Shown: positions 20,231-58,434 of the stretch, one piece after another
How positions within the stretch are numbered: the stretch's first letter is position 1
How the letters are laid out: each line of letters begins with the position of its first letter
Source of the DNA: a virus
Direction: 5' to 3' (one strand)
IMG/VR virus record: IMGVR_UViG_3300045988_102022
Length of the DNA stretch: 63,947 nt
Program-made: the position numbers and the translations under genes
Notes under the pieces: generated by a model
The model's input: the letters and a program-made list of their open reading frames with translations, nothing else
The model's database searches: none
What the model was told of the DNA's origin: nothing

Positions 20231-20305
20231 AAAGCTATTGGCAAGGACTTTGAACCTTCTGCCCGGTAGCTTTACAGGAGCTTAAGCTCCTGTCATCAGC
20301 TTTTA
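20231..20305 (-). ncRNA. Conserved two-hairpin RNA element, copy A
   Basis: Starts at the stop codon: TAAAAGCTGATG-ACAGGAGC/TTAA/GCTCCTGT-AAAGCT..GGCA-GA-AGG/TTCAAAGT/CCT-TGCC..AGCTT. Paralogous to 21053..21126 with compensatory changes. Confidence 0.45.
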
Positions 20306-21052: not shown

Positions 21053-21126
21053 AAGCTTTAGGCACAGGGTTTGAACTGTCTGCCTGCCAGCTTTACAAGG
21101 GCTATCGCCCTTGTCATCAGCTTTTA
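21053..21126 (-). ncRNA. Conserved two-hairpin RNA element, copy B
   Basis: TAAAAGCTGATG-ACAAGGGC/GATA/GCCCTTGT-AAAGCT..GGCA-GA-CAG/TTCAAACC/CTG-TGCC..AGCTT; begins at the stop codon of the 38-aa ORF. Confidence 0.45.
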
Positions 21127-49538: not shown

Positions 49539-51824
49539 TTAAGATTGAGGACGGAATACGCCGAACGCCCCACAATAGAACCTAGCGTTCCCGAGCCTGC
49601 TGTTGAGATAAACATAGAAGGGGCCAGCATCGTGGCTGCTGCTGAGCGCGCCACCAAACTGCACAATTTTCAAATCCGCATCGCTGTTAATGTAGAAATA
49701 ATCTCCTACGGGTTTAGAAGAATTGCTGCCTACAGTTTTAGGGATACTGATTAGCGGATAACTGTTGCTATAAGACAGCTCGTTAACGTAGCCGGAAGTC
49801 GGTGAAAAATCTATGTCGAATTTAATCCAGCCTTTAGCCAGCGCATCTTCTACGCTTGACGGCCACGCAGGAGCGGTCAAGGGAGCAGGGTTAACATATA
49901 GTCCCATGCCTTGCCTAAAAGCACCACCTAAGAGCTTCCAATCATTGGCGTAGAAGTTTTCGATTCCCAGCGTCAGCACCGACTTTCTACCATTCGTGCC
50001 GCCACTGATTTCGCCGTCCAAGCCGAGAACTGTGTCGCAGCCGCCGGAATAGCTCACTGCGCGATAAAAACCGCTAGCGCCTGCCACTGTTTTAAAAGCC
50101 GGACCGTCGACGTTGATTGCCTTATTGCTCTCGTCATAGTCGGTGATGGACAGAATCTTGCGTGTGTAGATACCTGCGCTCATACTCGTGCTGCTAAAAT
50201 AAATCGCATCGCCAGCGGTAAAATCTTTAGCAGTGTCATTGGCTACGATGATAGATGACGCACTATCTTGTGATACTGTACAACATTTTTCTTTCGCAAG
50301 GTAACCCCTCATTACGCCATTGCCTACAACTGATTGCCAATTTCTGTCAGCGTATTTAATGCAGCCAAGATGCTGCAACCAGGTCACATCAGCAAAGTTC
50401 ATCGCGTGAATGCCTGCGCCACGTGCAACAGATTTTGTTTCAAAGTCTTGCCAATTAATAGATACGCGCTTAGGTTTGCCAGCGCGGGAACAGATACCGC
50501 CGCTGCCGTTGTCGCACCAGCCATATTTAGTTATGCCCACAACATTGTATTCCGTGTTTTCAACAAAATGCAGCGGTGACGGGACGTATCCAGATAGCTT
50601 TTTGTCTGAGATGTAACGATACTCGTTGCCTTCGCCGTCAATGTATCTGCGGCCGTAGCCTTTGGGGAACATGACAAACACGTCAGCGTCGTATTCATCA
50701 TCATCTTTGTACTTCTCAAATTCATATGAGCCTTCTGTAGCTACAATCTTTCCACCTTTAACTAAGGCTTCATAAGTATTGTAGCAATTAAATTTTGTTG
50801 GAAAGTCATCTCTGCCTGCTATAAGGTCAGTAGATTTTTCCCATATCATGCTTTCCGCCATATCAAGCCTGGCGCCTGCTGATTCTGTAGGCGTAAATTT
50901 AACACCAGCAGTATAACGCCCGGAATTTTCTACAACATTCGCCGCATATTCGGCAGCTCTATTTGCTTCCATCTCGGCGGCCGCTCGTGCTGTTTCTGAT
51001 TGTTCCGCGCTGTTAGATGCTTCTCCCGCTTTCTGCGTTGCAAGGGTGGCAGATTCGGCAGCCCGCGCGGCAGACGAGGCGGCTTGTTCTGCTAAATCAC
51101 TAGTTTGCTGTTCACTGTTGGCAGCATTGCTTTCGCTATTCGCAGCTGCTTTTTGTGCGTTTTGCGCCTCGGTAATAAGCTTACCCATGGCCTGTAATGC
51201 GCTGTCAGTGATTGTCTGCGTGTCAGCCTTGCTTGCCTCTGCATCATCAGCATAACCTCTTGCAGCATCTTCACTAGTTTTGCTGTTGGCTTCACTCTGA
51301 GCCGCCGCCTCTTTACTAGTCTCAGCAGCCTTTTCGCTCGCCTTAGCGTTCTTTTCAGACTGTAACGCTGCTGCCGCACTGTCTGCTGCTTCCTGCGCGC
51401 TCTGAGCGGCGTTAGCTTCGCTCTCAGAAGTTTTTAAACTTTCATCGCGTACCTTGCCAAGAACTTCTTCCAGATAAGTCGGCGTTAATCGTTCTTCGTC
51501 AGGATTGTCAAAAGCTCGACCGGAGATAAGTAACAATTTGTCTTCTGCTGTTGCCGTTATATTCTTACCGTTGTTTCGTCCAACAACTGACATAATAACT
51601 TCGCCTTGATCAGAAATGCATTGTGCAGGAATGATACATTTGTTATCTTGGATATACATTTCGTAGGTATTTCGCCCATCCTTAAATAATGCCCATTTTT
51701 CAAGTTCGGTCCAGTCAGAAGACTGAAAATCAAATAAACATTCAATAAAATTATTAGTTCCACACACAATTTTATTGCTGCTTAAAGTAAGGCGTTGTGT
51801 TTTTATAATAATTTTAATTTGCAT
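49539..51824 (-). CDS. Tail fibre / receptor-binding protein
   Basis: 761 aa; Ala/Glu/Ser-rich coiled coil (SEANAAQSAQEAADSAAAALQSEKNAKASEKAAE...) followed by a large C-terminal globular part. Confidence 0.7.
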   Translation of the reverse strand: MQIKIIIKTQRLTLSSNKIVCGTNNFIECLFDFQSSDWTELEKWALFKDGRNTYEMYIQDNKCIIPAQCISDQGEVIMSVVGRNNGKNITATAEDKLLLISGRAFDNPDEERLTPTYLEEVLGKVRDESLKTSESEANAAQSAQEAADSAAAALQSEKNAKASEKAAETSKEAAAQSEANSKTSEDAARGYADDAEASKADTQTITDSALQAMGKLITEAQNAQKAAANSESNAANSEQQTSDLAEQAASSAARAAESATLATQKAGEASNSAEQSETARAAAEMEANRAAEYAANVVENSGRYTAGVKFTPTESAGARLDMAESMIWEKSTDLIAGRDDFPTKFNCYNTYEALVKGGKIVATEGSYEFEKYKDDDEYDADVFVMFPKGYGRRYIDGEGNEYRYISDKKLSGYVPSPLHFVENTEYNVVGITKYGWCDNGSGGICSRAGKPKRVSINWQDFETKSVARGAGIHAMNFADVTWLQHLGCIKYADRNWQSVVGNGVMRGYLAKEKCCTVSQDSASSIIVANDTAKDFTAGDAIYFSSTSMSAGIYTRKILSITDYDESNKAINVDGPAFKTVAGASGFYRAVSYSGGCDTVLGLDGEISGGTNGRKSVLTLGIENFYANDWKLLGGAFRQGMGLYVNPAPLTAPAWPSSVEDALAKGWIKFDIDFSPTSGYVNELSYSNSYPLISIPKTVGSNSSKPVGDYFYINSDADLKIVQFGGALSSSHDAGPFYVYLNSRLGNARFYCGAFGVFRPQS

Positions 51825-51836
51825 TGTTTTAACCTC

Positions 51837-52415
51837 TTACAATTCTATGTTGTCGAGTTCAAAAACTGTTTTGCAAGCATCTACTTCTGCCTGCTTTGCC
51901 CAGCCTGCTTGTTTGCAGGTGCCGATATGCATCGACAAATCCGCCATCCACTGCATAACCTGTTCGGGCGTGAGCCAATATACAGTTTTGCTTTCTGCAT
52001 CCTCAGCCACGCCACGCACAGGGCAGCCGTAAGGATACTTTGCAGCAAAAAGCGGCGTGCTGACATTGAGGGCTATACCTTGCATCGTAAGCTGCGTTTC
52101 CTTGTCGCTGTCATAGCGTACAGCCTCGCCGCTGGCACTGCTAACAAAGCCGCCTGTAATGTTGCTTGCTGTCCACTCGTTAATCTCTTTCAGTTTAAGT
52201 TTCTTTTGAAACGCTAAAACAAGCTCCTCATCATCTTTAGGAAAAACAACATCACCGTTTTCATTAAGGGCTAAATCAGTAGGAGTAGCAGAAGAACTAA
52301 TATTTTTAATAACATACTCGTCAACACCGTTATCCATGCCTGCAATGTAGTTTTTTAAAGAATCTTCGGAAGCACTAATAGCAATACCTTTTTTGTTTTT
52401 AAACAGATAAAACAT
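51837..52415 (-). CDS. Tail fibre assembly-like protein
   Basis: 192 aa in the fibre block. Confidence 0.35.
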   Translation of the reverse strand: MFYLFKNKKGIAISASEDSLKNYIAGMDNGVDEYVIKNISSSATPTDLALNENGDVVFPKDDEELVLAFQKKLKLKEINEWTASNITGGFVSSASGEAVRYDSDKETQLTMQGIALNVSTPLFAAKYPYGCPVRGVAEDAESKTVYWLTPEQVMQWMADLSMHIGTCKQAGWAKQAEVDACKTVFELDNIEL

Positions 52416-52428
52416 TTATTTCACCTCC

Positions 52429-53013
52429 TCAATACTTAACGCCATAAATTTCAATGATAGAGCTGTTTTGTTCGTCTATATACCAAGTTGTATCAGTAGA
52501 TAGTAAATGAGTGCCTGTACCAGATTGCACTCCACTAAGCACAATCCAATAAGTGCTATTAGATAGATTAAGTCGAAAACTGTACCCTTCTGAAAATGCT
52601 TTTTGTAATTCCCAAACATCATACAACTCATACTGACAGTAATATCCATTATCGTCACTACCAACCAACAAAATCTTATCATATAGCGTATAAGATTCTT
52701 TAAGCATTATTGTGCCTTTTCTACTGTCACTTCCACCCGATGTTGTCGGGAAAGAAGCATCACCACCATAGGCTTTAATGCCTCTAGAAGTATTATTAAT
52801 GTTCCTTACATCCGTACCGCCATTTCTTGTCTTCATCGTGTCCCAATCAATCAACGCTACAAGGGTAGGTGTAGTATTTCCTGACAGTTTATCTAACAAA
52901 TCTGTTTTTACAAAAGCAAAATCATCACTCCCTACACTAGAGATATTTTTATTGAAGCTGTTATAACTAGGGAATACATGAATTTTCTCTAGTTTACCTG
53001 TTGTACTTGCCAT
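52429..53013 (-). CDS. Hypothetical fibre-module protein
   Basis: 194 aa; AAGGGGG SD. Confidence 0.45.
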   Translation of the reverse strand: MASTTGKLEKIHVFPSYNSFNKNISSVGSDDFAFVKTDLLDKLSGNTTPTLVALIDWDTMKTRNGGTDVRNINNTSRGIKAYGGDASFPTTSGGSDSRKGTIMLKESYTLYDKILLVGSDDNGYYCQYELYDVWELQKAFSEGYSFRLNLSNSTYWIVLSGVQSGTGTHLLSTDTTWYIDEQNSSIIEIYGVKY

Positions 53014-53024
53014 TTTTTACCCCC

Positions 53025-54185
53025 TTATTTATTTACTGTAGATATATATGGTGTTGCTCCGCCGTATTCAATAATAACAAAACCTTGTGTTCCGTCGCTT
53101 ACTCTAAAACGTCCTGCACGGCCGCCGTCATTACTATAAAAGGTGTTTTTACCTCCTGCACCTACAACAATCTGAATCGTGCTGTTTGGAATTACTTCAA
53201 CTTCTGCATCAGCAACATAAGCACCGCTATTTCCTGCAACACCAATTTGATTAGAAGTTCCATCAGTATCAAAGAAGTGAAACGAACCGCCACCTGCACC
53301 ATAGATGTTAAACGATTCAAACGTTCCTGTAGATGCATAGGTTACGCTATCTTTAGTTCCAAGCACATTAGCATAGTAATATCCAACCTTACCCATTACG
53401 TCTGCTAAAGTAGCAATACCATTCTTGTTAAGCGGAAAACCGTATCCATTTACGGAAAAATCTCTATTTCTAGTGGTAACATATTCCCCTCTTACGCCGT
53501 TTTTAGAAGCAGCAGGCTGATTAACAGTCATTACATTACCACTTCTTAAAGTAGCAGTTGCACCTTGTCCACCGGGAATAACATAACTGCCAACTTTCGT
53601 ATCTCCGCCGTTTCCTGCTTGCATATCCAACGTGGGGCAGGAATTATAAGCACCAACAGTAATACCGCCTGCTCCACCACCACAACCAGTAACATATATT
53701 TTTGTAACGCCAGCAGGAATTCTTAAACTGTATGTGCCTACGGTTTTATATATAAGCCTGGTACGCTTCAACGTAACTACATCTTTATACATCAGATACT
53801 TCGAGCCATCTTTTTTTCGCATCTCAAAAACAGTTTTCGGAATGCTACTAATTTTTCGGGAATACTTATCTTTATCAACCTTATAAGATAAAATGCAAAA
53901 TCCGTCTACACCGTTACCGCCTGTACTGCCTTGCGTAGAACTCGACTTACCAACAGGAGAACCACTATCAGCATAGTTGGATGTATTACTCGCATTATAA
54001 ATTCCACCTCTGGCAGTTACACCTAATGCAGAAGAATCCTCTCCTGTTGTACCATAAACATAGTTAGAATTATTGGCTGTTACACCCTTGCCACCTTTTC
54101 CACCAGCACCAATAGTAATAGTGTACTGTGTTCCAGGTATAACACTAATAACTCTTGTTACACGTTCTCCATAACCTATAGTCAT
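53025..54185 (-). CDS. Glycine-rich fibre-like protein (one partial plus one complete glycine-rich domain)
   Basis: Start set at the ATG at 54185 (AGAGGTGA SD, 2 nt after the rSAM stop); IGAGGKGGKG, GCGGGAGG, GAGGGSF, GAGGKN motifs; ends GFVIIEYGG. Confidence 0.6.
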   Translation of the reverse strand: MTIGYGERVTRVISVIPGTQYTITIGAGGKGGKGVTANNSNYVYGTTGEDSSALGVTARGGIYNASNTSNYADSGSPVGKSSSTQGSTGGNGVDGFCILSYKVDKDKYSRKISSIPKTVFEMRKKDGSKYLMYKDVVTLKRTRLIYKTVGTYSLRIPAGVTKIYVTGCGGGAGGITVGAYNSCPTLDMQAGNGGDTKVGSYVIPGGQGATATLRSGNVMTVNQPAASKNGVRGEYVTTRNRDFSVNGYGFPLNKNGIATLADVMGKVGYYYANVLGTKDSVTYASTGTFESFNIYGAGGGSFHFFDTDGTSNQIGVAGNSGAYVADAEVEVIPNSTIQIVVGAGGKNTFYSNDGGRAGRFRVSDGTQGFVIIEYGGATPYISTVNK

Positions 54186-54187
54186 TT

Positions 54188-55252
54188 CTACATCACCTCT
54201 TTTATTGCTCCCCAAAATTCTCGCAAGTAATCACAATAACATAATTCACCATCTTTCTGCACTGCAATGGGACAAATGCAACGGCAAATATCCAAATGCT
54301 CGCAAGTTTTGCATTTAACAGGCAGAAGTTCCTCAAAAATTTTTCTATGTTTTTCTTGCAACTTCATAAAGTTATCTGTAATATAACCCACAATTCTATC
54401 AGTATTGTGACACAGCATAACTTCTCCATTAAAATTAACGCTAAGGCTTACAATGGCAGGACGGCAAGGCGGATAAGGATATTCATAAAATTCTTCTTTA
54501 TCAAAATTCCTTACACGCAAAATTTTTGAGTAAAACCAATGTCGAATATAAGGAGCAATTTTACTATCAGAATTTGCAGTTAACCACAAATTCTTAACCG
54601 CTTTTTTTACTGCACTAGGTTCAAATTGATATAGGTCAAGAGGCGTATGCTCACTCAGCACATTGATAAAACCGCAAGTAATTTCTGTTCCAGGAAACGT
54701 ATAATGTAGCCAGTCGAAAGCTTCTACCATATCATCATTAATAGCATTGAAAACAGTATTAACCGTTCTTTTTCTTATACGTAAAAACTTCTTGCAAGCT
54801 TCTTTACTAGGTACTGCATTTCTCGCCGCTCTTGCATTTGGTGCATCATAGCTCATGACAAACCAAATATCATTCTCGTTACAAAAGTCAACTATTTCAT
54901 CATTTAAAAGCAATCCGTTGCTAAAAATTCTATAACTAACATTCTTCACGCCGATTTTCTTAAATTCAAGCACAAGCTTCTTAATGGTTTCCCAATAAAG
55001 CAAAGGTTCTCCACCCCAAAAATATAATCGGCGCGGATTATTTTCAGCGTATTTCCAAGGCAGGTTACTCCACGCAACTATAAAGTCTTTAACCTCTTGC
55101 GATAAGTTTTCCCCTTGCGGAGAAAGGTTAAAGCAGCTTTTTATAGGGGTCTGAACGCAATGCCTACATGACATATTACAGGCAGCACCAAGAAGAAGGT
55201 AAATAGCTCCAAGGTCATTAAGCTTATGTATTTCTTCACTAAAGTTTTTCAT
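54188..55252 (-). CDS. Radical SAM / SPASM-domain maturase
   Basis: Start set at the ATG at 55252; GAACNMSCRHC (CX3CX2C), GGEPLL, SPASM pattern C-x12-G-x4-C ... C-x2-C-x5-C-x3-C ... C. Confidence 0.85.
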   Translation of the reverse strand: MKNFSEEIHKLNDLGAIYLLLGAACNMSCRHCVQTPIKSCFNLSPQGENLSQEVKDFIVAWSNLPWKYAENNPRRLYFWGGEPLLYWETIKKLVLEFKKIGVKNVSYRIFSNGLLLNDEIVDFCNENDIWFVMSYDAPNARAARNAVPSKEACKKFLRIRKRTVNTVFNAINDDMVEAFDWLHYTFPGTEITCGFINVLSEHTPLDLYQFEPSAVKKAVKNLWLTANSDSKIAPYIRHWFYSKILRVRNFDKEEFYEYPYPPCRPAIVSLSVNFNGEVMLCHNTDRIVGYITDNFMKLQEKHRKIFEELLPVKCKTCEHLDICRCICPIAVQKDGELCYCDYLREFWGAIKEVM

Positions 55253-55259
55253 GATCGTT

Positions 55260-55448
55260 TTAGTTACCTTCACCGCCGCTTCCTTCGCCAGCGCTACCGC
55301 TACTACCGCTATTATTGTAGTTTCTTCCGCGACCACCAGCTCCTGCCCCCGAAATTTCTACTGTAATTTCAGTAACACCTTCGGGAACAGTAAATGTATG
55401 CGTCCCTGCTGTGCTCCATGATGTAATTACATCTACCTTATTATCCAT
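55260..55448 (-). CDS. 62-aa glycine-rich peptide (candidate rSAM substrate, or N-terminal fragment of a split glycine-rich domain)
   Basis: Own SD (AGAGG 6 nt upstream); stops 7 nt before the rSAM ATG; THTFTVPEGVTEITVEISGAGAGG + RGRNYNNSGSSGSAGEGSGGEGN. Confidence 0.55.
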   Translation of the reverse strand: MDNKVDVITSWSTAGTHTFTVPEGVTEITVEISGAGAGGRGRNYNNSGSSGSAGEGSGGEGN

Positions 55449-55458
55449 AAGCTACCTC

Positions 55459-55881
55459 TCATTCTGTATAGGTAATCATTGTTACACCTATACTATCTAT
55501 TCCAAGATTTTTTCTTGCGGCTTCGGCAGTTGTAGCTCCTGTGCCGCCATTAGCAATAGGCAATGCGCCGCTCGTGTTGCCTAAACCCAAAACATTGCGA
55601 ATACCGGCAACAGTTGTTTGCCCAGTGCCACCACCAGCAATAGGAAGAACCTTAAATGTTGCATCGCCGCACAATGCCATATCCTGCTTTCCTGCCGCTG
55701 GAATAGGAACAAGTCCTGCTTTGCCAGCGGCGTTAGATGTTGCCCCTTCCATATTAGCAATATTGACATTGCCTTTAGAATCGGGTTTTGCGCCATTAAC
55801 CGAACGAACAAATTTTGCTTTTATTTGTCCTAAAAAATAGCTTAATCCGTCAAGATCAATTAATTTTTGCAAGTTAGCCAT
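55459..55881 (-). CDS. Tail fibre N-terminal (baseplate-attachment) protein
   Basis: MANLQKLIDLDGLSYFLGQIKAKF and PIANGGTGATTAEAARKNLG motifs are common at phage fibre N-termini. Confidence 0.55.
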   Translation of the reverse strand: MANLQKLIDLDGLSYFLGQIKAKFVRSVNGAKPDSKGNVNIANMEGATSNAAGKAGLVPIPAAGKQDMALCGDATFKVLPIAGGGTGQTTVAGIRNVLGLGNTSGALPIANGGTGATTAEAARKNLGIDSIGVTMITYTE

Positions 55882-56330: not shown

Positions 56331-57022
56331 TATTCAACAAGTCCCCCTTTCACTTTAATAATCCTTGCGAATGTCCCCTGGTTGAATCCTTTAAAATTAT
56401 AGGGATTTTCTCCGCTTCTGCTAAAGCCGAACGTATTTGCAGCATCAAAAGAATAAACATAGATAATGCCGATGCCAGCTCCGCGAATAATAAGATTTAG
56501 TGCGTCTATTAGACGGCTTTCTTTGCTGGTTACCAAACGTCCTATTCCTATGCGCATTTTAGCATTTCCGGCATTCACAGCGGAAACACGTGCAACATTA
56601 AAAACTTTTTTTATGCTATGTATGGTACTAACACGAGAACAGTCTGTAGTGTTCTTTTCAATCTTCGAGATAACAGCAAGTCGGTAATAACTGTCGTTTA
56701 AATCGCTGGATGTAAGATAATTATCATACATACGTCTAAACGGAGCTTGTCCGAATCCCATGTTGCCATGATCGGGAAAACCAAAAAAATCCATTGCAAT
56801 AGCATTTTCAACACGGCGAGAAATATCAGCGACTTCACCGCACATATCAAGCTGCTTGCCAACTGCCGTATCTGGCCATATTTGTGTCCGTATCTGCTCC
56901 CTTGCTTTATCTATGCTGTCGAGTTCGTTTCCGACGGCATTAAGAAAAGCTTTAATGTTGGGTTTGTTACGAAACTGACTTAACAAATGATTATACATTC
57001 TTTCGCTTGTAGTCATAATCAT
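56330..57022 (-). CDS. Baseplate protein (P2 gpI / DUF2612-like position)
   Basis: 230 aa directly after the J-like gene. Confidence 0.45.
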   Translation of the reverse strand: MIMTTSERMYNHLLSQFRNKPNIKAFLNAVGNELDSIDKAREQIRTQIWPDTAVGKQLDMCGEVADISRRVENAIAMDFFGFPDHGNMGFGQAPFRRMYDNYLTSSDLNDSYYRLAVISKIEKNTTDCSRVSTIHSIKKVFNVARVSAVNAGNAKMRIGIGRLVTSKESRLIDALNLIIRGAGIGIIYVYSFDAANTFGFSRSGENPYNFKGFNQGTFARIIKVKGGLVE

Positions 57023-58434
57023 AACTCCAAAGCTACAGTAACATTAGCAAGCTTTGTTACTGCCAGCTCATTACGTTCAATCGAAATGTTTTCCTGCTTA
57101 TACGTTTGACCATCTTTAGACACGCTACACTCAATATAGCTAATGCCGTCAACGCCGCTGTAAATAGGACCAAGCAAACGCTGATAAATAACATCATTGC
57201 CCATAGACAGCTTGCTAATCTGTTCGACAACGATATTTTTAATTTTATCGATTGCATCACCGGGTAAAATTTCTTCGTTATATTCTTTAATAATGACTTT
57301 GACATAAATCTGTACCTCATGCGGACGGCTAAAGCATACCTCTTGCTCTGCACCTTCGCTATCCTCAATGCGAACGCAAATATCACCATTTGTATCAATG
57401 CCTAAAGGCGCAACATTTAAAATGGTGCGAGCAATAGCTTCTTCATCGCCACCGAAAACAATAGCCTGGAAGGAGTGAGGTTTTAAGCCATCAACTGTTT
57501 CATCACTGCGGTTCTCATAGATGGTTACGCTTGTAACATCCTGCAATTCAAGCAACGCAGCTTTAATGCTTTCTTTCATGCCTATGCTGTTTCGGAATAC
57601 CGCAGACGCATAACGTTGACGCACTTCGGATGCTGTTTCATAATCACGTCCCACGTATGTTTCAGATTCGTTACTGACGGAAAACCAGCCGTCATAATTC
57701 GTGTTGATATAGTTAACGCTGTTCAGCAAAGGTTCTATTTCTCCGTATTTTTCGCAATCAAAGCGAATAGGACTGCCAACCTGTGTAACTGTGAACGATT
57801 CATTAGGTACAACCACAGCTCCATACCGCCTGTCAGAGCGTTCAAAAACCAGCTTGCCATTAACTACATTGCCCTGCCATTTTGAAACGCTCTGTGAAGC
57901 CAAGGCAACGGCAACAACAAGAGCCGTTTCTCCTGCTTTGGCTGTGTACTTAATAACTACATCATTGTCAAATTGCACGCTGTAAACCTTGCCTTGTGTA
58001 GGTGCAGCAACATCAAGCGTAACGTGTACGCAGTCATTAAGGGTAATGGTGCTTTCCTCGATAATATCCCACTTATAGCCGGATGTATCTTTAATCTGGC
58101 AGTTTGCAGGAAGAACCATGCCACTACGTCCATAACAAACAGCATAAAGGTAGCTTGCCTGAGCTTTCTTTCGTTGCACATTGGTGTATGCAAGTGTGTT
58201 ATCCAAACTGCCTTCGCTGGCACTAATAGGCGAGCGGTCATAATAATCACGCTCCAAAAGCTGCCACATCCTGTCAAGCTCTGCTGCATATACACCAACA
58301 AGAACGCCTATCATGCTGTTAGGTTGACGGCTGACTGTTGAGCCTAAATTTTGTTCCAAGCTTTTAAAAATATCTTCCCGAATCTCTGGCAGACGCTTTC
58401 TGACAAAACCGTTAACCGTTACTCCGTACTCCAT
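57019..58434 (-). CDS. Baseplate J-like wedge protein
   Basis: 471 aa, position after the W/gp25-like gene. Confidence 0.55.
   Translation of the reverse strand: MEYGVTVNGFVRKRLPEIREDIFKSLEQNLGSTVSRQPNSMIGVLVGVYAAELDRMWQLLERDYYDRSPISASEGSLDNTLAYTNVQRKKAQASYLYAVCYGRSGMVLPANCQIKDTSGYKWDIIEESTITLNDCVHVTLDVAAPTQGKVYSVQFDNDVVIKYTAKAGETALVVAVALASQSVSKWQGNVVNGKLVFERSDRRYGAVVVPNESFTVTQVGSPIRFDCEKYGEIEPLLNSVNYINTNYDGWFSVSNESETYVGRDYETASEVRQRYASAVFRNSIGMKESIKAALLELQDVTSVTIYENRSDETVDGLKPHSFQAIVFGGDEEAIARTILNVAPLGIDTNGDICVRIEDSEGAEQEVCFSRPHEVQIYVKVIIKEYNEEILPGDAIDKIKNIVVEQISKLSMGNDVIYQRLLGPIYSGVDGISYIECSVSKDGQTYKQENISIERNELAVTKLANVTVALEL

Follow-up and report, generated by a model that had tools for sequence, protein, structure and literature searches.

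Why should a bacteriophage encode a radical S-adenosylmethionine (SAM) enzyme among its tail-fiber genes, and why should that gene lie between two pieces of one glycine-rich domain? These questions are raised by positions 53025 to 55881 of IMG/VR virus record IMGVR_UViG_3300045988_102022, a stretch of 63,947 nucleotides (nt) that we call the window. A sequence-only reading had noted here a radical-SAM/SPASM maturase gene between a 62-amino-acid (aa) open reading frame (ORF) and a glycine-rich fiber protein, and had offered two explanations: (a) a maturase and precursor pair like those of peptides made by the ribosome and modified after translation (RiPPs), or (b) an inserted gene that split a fiber gene. 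Our comparison of related loci suggests that the locus is probably one case of a portable module, in which a tail protein bears a C-terminal tag and a translationally coupled radical-SAM/SPASM enzyme acts on that tag. The pairing of enzyme and tag is in our judgment quite likely, and any particular chemistry is tentative at best.

The ORF at 54188..55252 (minus strand; 354 aa from its ATG) is, by its motifs and profiles, a radical-SAM/SPASM enzyme with the full catalytic sequence equipment. It scored 32.9 bits against the Pfam profile Radical_SAM PF04055 (cutoff, 29.5) and, marginally, 28.0 against the NCBIfam SPASM profile TIGR04085 (cutoff, 27; residues 266-333); PF13186 was not reported in the Pfam search. 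The CX3CX2C radical-SAM cluster motif is C25-x3-C29-x2-C32 (CNMSCRHC; 55157..55180, minus strand), and GGEPLL occupies residues 80-85. We defined a SPASM region by a profile match together with the pattern CX9-15GX4C ... CX2CX5CX3C ... C, which reads here as C263-x12-G-x4-C281, C314-x2-C317-x5-C323-x3-C327 and C340 (54233..54466, minus strand). In an alignment of 31 family sequences, C25, C29, C32, C314, C317, C323 and C340 are invariant and C263 is nearly so, and C281 and C327 fall below the 90% conservation mark. Other conserved positions are FWGGEPLL, SYDAP and an invariant His-Asn pair after the second SPASM Cys (H282-N283). The coordinates, radical-SAM motifs and seven-Cys pattern of the sequence-only reading therefore stand, as judged by the ORF list, both profiles and the alignment.

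The family to which this enzyme belongs comprises about 77 clusters of 31-94% identity; beyond them, after a gap, come generic SPASM maturases (E ~1e-6). Its members come from gut and rumen metagenomes and from contigs of metagenome-assembled genomes assigned to Phascolarctobacterium, and one lies in an apparent prophage, with tail, lysis and recombinase genes, of the cultured Succiniclasticum ruminis DSM 9236 (L090, contig NZ_FONL01000010.1). GenBank phage records held no family member, only generic radical-SAM proteins with less than 35% identity over the N-terminal core, and the sole PHROGs listing of related phage proteins is phrog_1802, "radical SAM domain-containing protein". A model of the enzyme built with AlphaFold2 from the family alignment has a mean confidence score (pLDDT) of 92.4. 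Its best Foldseek matches, anSMEcpe (the top match), CteB, ChlB, TigE and SuiB, have TM-scores of 0.58-0.65 and give no clear choice among them. The nearest solved structure by sequence is the cyclopropyl synthase TigE (E 7e-28), and the best NCBIfam similarities are to the RiPP maturases CcpM, PapB and SCIFF. Since all equivalog scores lie far below their cutoffs, we regard the family as a new subfamily of SPASM peptide and protein modifiers. An N-terminal domain of the size of a RiPP recognition element (RRE) is absent, the cluster motif being reached already at residue 25 in the sequence, the alignment and the model, and neither the ORF list nor Pfam revealed an RRE-like ORF within the module of the window. 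Enzymes of the L002 type have a 55-aa N-terminal extension, whose fold is without assignment.

The gene is translationally coupled on both sides, as had been proposed. Its ATG lies 7 nt after the TAA stop codon of the 62-aa ORF (55260..55448, minus strand), which has its own Shine-Dalgarno (SD) sequence and whose last codons double as the SD of the radical-SAM gene. The ATG of the glycine-rich fiber protein (386 aa from the ATG; 53025..54185, minus strand) lies 2 nt after the TAG stop of the radical-SAM gene, with its SD, AGAGGTGA, within the 3' end of that gene. More than 15 independent contigs share a layout of a 62-67-aa ORF, the enzyme gene and a fiber gene, and the lengths differ by multiples of 3 nt. 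This recurrence argues that the layout is not an accident of assembly. When called mechanically, the radical-SAM ORF reaches upstream to a GTG at 55336. Positions 55253..55336 contain the tag-coding DNA, whose +1 frame is open and gives an Ala/Val/Lys-rich reading; gene callers therefore extend the enzyme by 17-43 aa, starting from GTG or ATG. Public entries of 371-397 aa (P0001-P0006) probably carry a spurious N-terminus for this reason.

The feature that links this locus to others is the C-terminus of the protein encoded upstream. We read about 20 independent genomic contexts among the clusters, which were always tail modules, of very different phages: P2-like baseplate contexts (the window, L001, L162), siphovirus-like contexts with Phage-tail_3 (L002, L019) and T7-like podovirus tails with connector, nozzle and gp14 (L158, L160). 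In these tail modules about 16 enzyme lineages (32-95% identity) all carry the tag on otherwise unrelated proteins, namely the window, L088, L158, L160, L162, L002/L017/L018, L289, L164, L019/L090, L089, L292, L294, L315, L025/L293, L030 and L449. The conserved part of the upstream protein is its last 8-25 residues, with one to three copies of the unit (S/C)-G-G-E-G that end 0-3 residues before the stop codon. In the window the core tag is GEGSGGEGN, residues 54-62 of the 62-aa ORF (55263..55289, minus strand), in which Ser57 and Glu60 belong to the (S/C)GGE unit; we propose it as a putative recognition and modification site. The tails up to the stop codon are ...SAGEGSGGEGN in the window, ...GEGGSGGEGSGGEG in L088, ...MGEGSGGEGA in L158, ...GSGGEGSGGEA in L160, ...STGSGGEGSGGEGG in L162, ...SSGEGSGGEGA in L002, ...SSGEGSGGEGSGGE in L019, ...SSSGEGSGGEGGA in L292, ...SSGEGSDGEGNE in L315, ...SSCGSEGGCGGGEA in L025 and ...DSSGCGGEGG in L030. 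Cys-type tags read CGGGE or CGGE, and the spacing C-x2-3-E occurs only in the tags of the L025/L030 type. An aromatic-x-Asn/Asp cyclophane motif before the tag (YNN, YDD, WDD) was considered as a target and rejected, since L088 and L294 lack it and it is thus not universal.

The bodies of the tag carriers differ widely. They include the 62-67-aa Gly_rich_2 head, a 170-200-aa beta-rich protein, an N-terminal fragment of phrog_376 and repeat-rich fiber proteins of 441-626 aa, of which those of 441-581 aa are without family assignment. The gene downstream of the enzyme is variable as well: the second half of Gly_rich_2, a small fiber protein followed by DUF4376, or holin and lysin genes. The start of the enzyme gene overlaps the carrier stop or lies within 7 nt of it in 10 of the 11 lineages in which the enzyme gene comes next; for L019 we infer an overlapping GTG start.

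Several comparisons point to a specific association between tag and enzyme. Eight of 1234 other plus-strand ORF ends in the family loci match the tag pattern, and all eight belong to L002-type carriers, one gene upstream of the radical-SAM gene. The tag Ser is encoded by AGC/AGT in one set of lineages and by TCT/TCC/TCA in another, and Gly codons and repeat number also vary; the switching between Ser codon families indicates that the constraint is on the protein and not on the DNA. A full HMMER search for relatives of the body domain of the L162 carrier (P0125) found tagged and untagged members. The tagged relatives (L162, the L025 group, L030, L449) have a family enzyme encoded directly downstream; the untagged ones (L445, L446, L448) are followed by DUF4376 or another fiber gene, with no radical-SAM gene in the locus, and end in ...YSTWSVGT (P0133), ...YDDDYDDSGDRG (P0130) and ...YDSYDDGGGE (P0127). 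A word-indexed protein search with the same carrier returned only the carrier itself. The IMG/VR collection was also scanned for DNA encoding GEG[S..]GGEG; the matches listed were mostly GC-rich noise and scaffold-protein N-termini, and among them the motif stood at a real C-terminus only in known radical-SAM loci, which is weak evidence.

The relatives of the window phage provide a comparison of the same kind. Contigs that share the 140-aa tail-fiber N-terminal anchor of the window (55459..55881, minus strand; PHROG tail fiber protein matches), which is a separate ORF as the sequence-only reading had it, carry alternative modules at one position. Type A has the layout of the window, and type B has a Cys-tag carrier with an enzyme of 39% identity; types C and D have neither tag nor enzyme gene. 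The 200-aa protein of type C was considered as a tail-less homologue of the L025 carrier, and BLASTP showed no detectable homology. In L447 (560..1406), a type-B module has decayed: the tag DNA and the start of the radical-SAM gene are deleted and the gene is frameshifted after 182 codons, although this is a short Logan contig in which an assembly error is possible. In a neighbor-joining tree, enzymes with Cys-type tags form their own clade, with 47% identity among themselves and 32-41% to the rest. The carriers of L162 and L025 are homologues (47% identity) in which one and the same tail position is Ser in L162 and Cys in L025, and their enzymes fall in separate clades; the tag type thus appears to follow the enzyme, not the carrier. 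Tag and enzyme co-occur, co-vary and are lost together. The comparative genomics thus favors the earlier idea of a maturase pair, and the partner is a C-terminal tag, not the Gly-rich domain or the 386-aa protein.

The second question is why the glycine-rich domain is broken. The 62-aa ORF begins as a split Gly_rich_2 domain, of which it has the head (the beta-hairpin THTFTVPEGVTEITVEIS and GAGAGG), and ends in the tag. It matches Gly_rich_2 PF21722 at profile positions 2-43 (E 2e-4; 21.9 bits, just under the cutoff of 24.3), and its PHROG matches are minor tail and tail fiber proteins. The 386-aa protein matches the same profile at positions 43-129 with its residues 7-95 (E 2.8e-9, 37.7 bits); its residues 1 to ~112 form the second half of the split domain, and a second Gly-rich domain, which looks complete by eye, occupies residues ~165 to 380. 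The Pfam break lies at profile position 43, and no single polypeptide holds the domain. Among four matches in a word-indexed protein search with the fused split domain, one was useful, the continuous Gly_rich_2 protein P0124, with which the joined 62-aa ORF and 386-aa N-terminus are colinear across the junction (BLASTP E 9e-13). The AGEGSGGEGN of the window aligns to the second G-motif of P0124, GAGGSGG, and the window protein then stops. The two products are thus pieces of one broken domain, as the sequence-only reading had claimed.

Such splits recur elsewhere. The phrog_376 tail-protein family, continuous in PHROGs (712 positions), is divided around the cassette in L158 and L160. The first ORF (227/234 aa) covers phrog_376 positions 3-198, then a Gly_rich_2 head and the tag, and the radical-SAM gene is next; the ORF after it (692/699 aa) begins with ~100 aa of the Gly_rich_2 second half and continues with phrog_376 positions 162-711. 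In L002, a 268-aa head with tag and stop is joined by an ATGA overlap to the remainder of the domain (164 aa), and the radical-SAM gene follows. In L289, one Gly-rich domain extends over three ORFs (286, 56 and 107 aa), the first two ending in the tags ...SSGGEA and ...SSGEGSGGEGG; the breaks are ATGA overlaps and the radical-SAM gene lies further downstream. Gly-rich domains, and in the podovirus-like loci a whole tail protein, are thus expressed as two to three fragments, and every observed break leaves a tag at the new C-terminus of the N-terminal fragment. Since the breaks of L002 and L289 fall between overlapping ORFs, with the radical-SAM gene beyond them, this gene is not what breaks the domain. 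The splitting proposed under explanation (b) is therefore real and recurrent (L158/L160, L289), and its attribution to an inserted radical-SAM gene fails. A split mediated by an intron or a homing endonuclease gene was also rejected: Rfam gave no relevant intron or ribozyme in the radical-SAM region at the gathering threshold or at E<=1, the intervening ORF is the radical-SAM gene and the intervening DNA contains no homing-endonuclease domain, and the flanks hold short chance repeats only, with no excision or inversion sites. Frameshift fusion across the L289 breaks was rejected by inspection, as the downstream frame has a TGA just before the overlapping ATG (codons inferred from protein); termination and reinitiation is therefore the simple reading.

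One interpretation of this fragmentation is that tail proteins are deliberately encoded as SGGEG-tagged fragments and that the enzyme staples each tagged end into or onto the next fragment, which may covalently re-join or lock split virion proteins by a new Ser/Cys-Glu or aldehyde-based linkage. We consider this unlikely, and a covalent link between fragment 2 and the tagged C-terminal end of fragment 1, for example by formylglycine plus an amine or by a radical C-C/C-X bond, that re-joins gene-split tail proteins, quite unlikely. The split lineages (the window, L088, L158, L160, L289) fit such a reaction, since every split tags the N-terminal fragment, the next structural protein has the matching half-domain at its N-terminus, and the pieces are colinear with a continuous domain. 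However, many tagged proteins are without a complementary second fragment, and stapling is therefore not general: in L019 and L030 the pair is followed by lysis genes, and in L162 and L025 by an unrelated small fiber protein. No conserved nucleophile is evident at the N-termini of the second fragments.

Alternatively, the enzyme gene and a short 5' leader encoding GEGSGGEG-stop and an SD could be a selfish or neutral mobile cassette that recombines into G-rich (GGN-rich) tail genes. Hypervariable tail genes would be truncated or split by it, the tag would be a scar or cassette end instead of a substrate, and the enzyme would have a different role, for instance as a moron or in anti-defense. 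This possibility accounts for the mosaic distribution and for the overlap of the tag end with the SD. It is also in line with the presence of the module in myo-, sipho- and podovirus-like phages, in tail genes unrelated to one another, where it splits the phrog_376 tail protein, and with the swapping of fiber modules among otherwise near-identical phages. Base composition bears on it as well. The GC content at third codon positions (GC3) is 0.24-0.30 in the distal fiber module (52429..55881) compared to 0.39-0.43 in the baseplate J and 761-aa tail protein genes (57019..58434 and 49539..51824), and low GC3 and swapping together are consistent with cassette exchange. The radical-SAM gene itself had been called AT-rich relative to its flanks. 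Its GC content is indeed low (0.362 compared to 0.417 in the window, in the lowest 2.6% among equal-sized windows), but its GC3 of 0.304 equals that of the neighboring genes (0.24-0.30); the contrast reflects the Gly GGN codons in which the flanking genes are rich, and not foreignness of the enzyme gene alone. Against a mobile cassette, there are no flanking repeats, nuclease, integrase or intron signal, and the tag keeps its protein sequence while its Ser codons switch between families and its repeat number varies. Tags also end ORFs that have no radical-SAM gene next to them (L002, L289), the Ser or Cys type of the tag tracks the enzyme clade, and tag and enzyme gene decay jointly in L447. 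We therefore regard this explanation as improbable.

A classical RiPP system, in which the modified Gly/Ser tail of a 62-aa precursor is cut away and set free as a small bioactive peptide that has no connection with the virion, would match the order of a small precursor gene and a translationally coupled radical-SAM/SPASM gene and the similarity to CcpM, PapB and SCIFF, but it is highly improbable given that the module has no RRE domain, protease or exporter gene, that the tag borne by the 62-aa ORF in the window is carried in other lineages by structural tail proteins of 170-626 aa, including the phrog_376 fragment, and that the adjoining fiber domain lacks the part which the 62-aa head provides. 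The absence of an RRE points to protein modification and not to a classical leader-guided system, and in this respect explanation (a) calls for refinement.

The reading that we prefer, an enzyme acting on a C-terminal tag, also has evidence against it. The tails ...GGHGGGGGDF (L164), ...SEGEGGGF (L089) and ...GEGGGGE (L021) deviate from the tag, and the tag-bearing ORFs of L002 and L289 do not adjoin the radical-SAM gene. The terminal GGEG codons are the SD of the next gene, so their conservation could be partly at the nucleotide level, and the correlation between Cys-type tags and an enzyme clade rests on two independent lineages only. Distant members of the family (31-36% identity, L005) lie in a bacterial chromosomal array without a tagged protein; the fold is therefore not restricted to a tail-tag role. 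We infer reassembly of the split domain, and a single-sequence AlphaFold2 model of the 62-aa product fused to the second half is uninformative (pLDDT 41.5, unusable). Finally, the reaction assigned to the enzyme is a guess, and ether formation to a Ser oxygen by a SPASM enzyme is rare chemistry.

How might the tag be used? We speculate that the module is expressed late, in a strictly anaerobic host of the Phascolarctobacterium or Succiniclasticum type. Because the enzyme is without an RRE domain, it may bind the free C-terminal tag directly, as anSME binds its protein substrate. Seven rather than eight Cys in the SPASM region are compatible with an open, substrate-binding site at auxiliary cluster I (Aux I), as judged from the CteB and anSME structures. 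The enzyme would abstract a hydrogen atom within the (S/C)GGE unit, and the product could be a small intramolecular (thio)ether ring of the PapB or QhpD kind, in which the Ser/Cys heteroatom is bonded to a Glu carbon; the bond would be a thioether for the Cys-clade enzymes and an ether for those of the Ser clade. We favor such a ring among the candidate products because Ser/Cys and the Glu three residues on are conserved, spaced by Gly-Gly, and the change from Ser to Cys occurs in a separate enzyme clade. The second candidate is oxidation of Ser/Cys to formylglycine, which is the main alternative since Ser/Cys interchange is a hallmark of anSME substrates. Modification may require a free C-terminus near the motif, a need that would explain why the gene is cut right after an internal Gly-rich motif. 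For the window this would mean that the 62-aa piece, once modified, complements the N-terminal half-domain of the 386-aa fiber protein, and the result could be a rigidified or chemically armed distal fiber domain.

The surrounding genes fit an exchangeable fiber module. The whole region is on the minus strand, downstream of P2-type baseplate genes, in the transcription order 140-aa anchor, 62-aa ORF, 354-aa radical-SAM enzyme, 386-aa Gly-rich protein, 194-aa protein and DUF4376 protein. The anchor is common to related phages with other distal fiber modules, where it precedes module types A-D. The 194-aa distal fiber-module protein (52429..53013, minus strand; assigned by inspection) has an N-terminus resembling, by inspection, the proteins encoded after the enzyme in L025 and L162, and had no family match in Pfam or PHROG searches. 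The module is closed by the DUF4376 protein (51837..52415, minus strand; PF14301, phrog_1348, PHROG "tail fiber protein"), and types A-C are closed by this protein or by a homologue with an identical C-terminal sequence. Related phages exchange the module (types A-D) between the anchor and the DUF4376-type gene with its conserved C-terminal sequence. The fiber protein after the enzyme has 587-588 aa in the close relatives L006-L009, L016 and L086, compared to 386 aa in the window; the extra ~200-aa C-terminal domain is a separate ORF in L001 (396 + 183 aa). Such differences in fiber-tip length are further modular variation. Elsewhere in the window, two Twister-P5 ribozymes (20243..20301 and 21064..21122, minus strand; 48.3 and 45.4 bits, gathering score 37.6) lie ~820 nt apart in intergenic gaps of a minus-strand cluster of small ORFs and may process a polycistronic early transcript.

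Related enzymes were found in other settings. In L002 (7225..9957), a second, more distant radical-SAM gene (335 aa, phrog_1802) follows a 573-aa fiber protein ending in ...HGIVGSYDDYGGDS. This acidic YDD-type tail may or may not be a substrate, and similar tails occur in L446 and L448 without a radical-SAM gene. A second, related-looking system is present in other viral contigs (L037 4267..8720; L041 4426..8729; L035 2890..7059; L031 3995..10251), where a 147-285-aa protein with a Cys-rich acidic tail (...SNCNCKCDCACSNNDEE or ...GNCDCCGSDS, and in another form ...CNCKCDCACSNNDEE) is followed by two to four radical-SAM/SPASM genes, and a conserved ~230-aa protein is also present. By eye, this system adjoins tail-like and fiber-like genes in L035 and L041; PHROGs yielded no useful annotation for its carriers. 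It suggests that the tail-tag theme is broader. The array in L005 (7500..16100 of a 130-kb bacterial contig) consists of six intact tandem radical-SAM paralogues and a disrupted one, several of them without SPASM cysteines, and adjoins genes for a glycosyltransferase and a TupA-like ATP-grasp protein. Here the fold occurs in a cellular setting of another kind.

The roles known for radical-SAM/SPASM enzymes are the making of peptide natural products and the maturation of a few enzymes of the cell. Full-text literature searches (radical SAM/SPASM with tail fiber, receptor-binding protein, phage RiPP or Gly_rich_2) found no such enzyme-substrate pair described. This result and the GenBank phage records without a family member agree with the statement of the sequence-only reading that it was aware of no radical-SAM/SPASM enzyme acting on phage tail fibers. 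If our proposal is true, virion tail proteins are a new class of substrate for these enzymes, probably with a new linkage, and the biology of receptor-binding proteins gains an oxygen-sensitive post-translational chemistry that is possible only in anaerobic hosts. The proposal would also account concretely for the small ORFs into which tail genes and Gly-rich domains of gut phages are divided, and which annotation pipelines treat as junk. The pair of a short tag and its enzyme could be exploited for protein engineering, and the apparent prophage of Succiniclasticum ruminis DSM 9236 makes the hypothesis directly testable in a cultured bacterium.

A radical-SAM/SPASM enzyme encoded next to its substrate is a known kind of system; new here would be the substrate class, the tag and the unusual tie to gene fragmentation. 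Like the enzymes of this family, anSME (anSMEcpe, PDB 4K37) is a minimal radical-SAM plus SPASM protein of ~360 aa without an RRE, and it acts on a folded protein substrate in which Ser or Cys is accepted at the target. In contrast, the window enzyme scores 38.9 against the anSME model TIGR03942 (cutoff, 349.45), which places it outside that group, and the anSME substrate motif is C/S-x-P/A-x-R in sulfatases compared to (S/C)GGEG at a C-terminus here; no sulfatase or CxPxR motif is present at the loci. The SPASM region of anSME has eight cluster-ligating Cys, and this family conserves seven together with the invariant His-Asn pair. TigE/TvgB cyclopropylglycine synthases (PDB 8VPO), the best sequence match among solved structures, modify a residue in a short repeated motif (TIGSVS, TVGG). 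Unlike the window enzyme, they have an N-terminal RRE-containing extension, so that the alignment begins at TigE residue 102, and the window tag is without Val or Ile. All cyclopropyl (CP) synthases are stated to share, uniquely, a GYW motif in which the Tyr is a ligand of Aux I (PMC10878394). We rejected membership in that group because GYW is absent: where TigE has G338-Y339-W340, the window enzyme has R-H-W-F, and these positions are variable in the family.

Enzymes of the PapB/QhpD type join a Cys sulfur to an Asp or Glu carbon at a distance of a few residues, within short motifs that are repeated (PapA CX3D), and QhpD makes its crosslinks on a protein subunit; the Cys-type tags described here contain CGGGE and CGGE. 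PapB is also reported to link the thiol of a Cys to a peptide's C-terminal residue (PMC12373016). No other NCBIfam model than that of PapB aligns over the whole enzyme (residues 15-327), but the score of 50.4 against NF047865 is far from the cutoff of 340 and leaves the enzyme outside that family. The window tag is without Cys, most tags have Ser, and the carriers are phage tail proteins.

The fragmentation has its own parallels. In Aeromonas phage Aeh1, nrdA is reportedly split by mobE and the products reassemble. Like that gene, the tail gene in the window is in two ORFs with another gene between them, and its products presumably function through non-covalent reassembly. Unlike in Aeh1, the intervening gene encodes a radical-SAM enzyme and not a homing endonuclease, breaks also occur without this gene between the pieces, and a tag is found at every break. 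The 62-aa head and the 386-aa N-terminus jointly cover positions 2-129 of Gly_rich_2 (PF21722), a domain of phage tail proteins; unlike in the continuous homologue P0124, the domain is distributed over two or three chains, and its second G-motif is replaced by the acidic AGEGSGGEGN and a stop codon.

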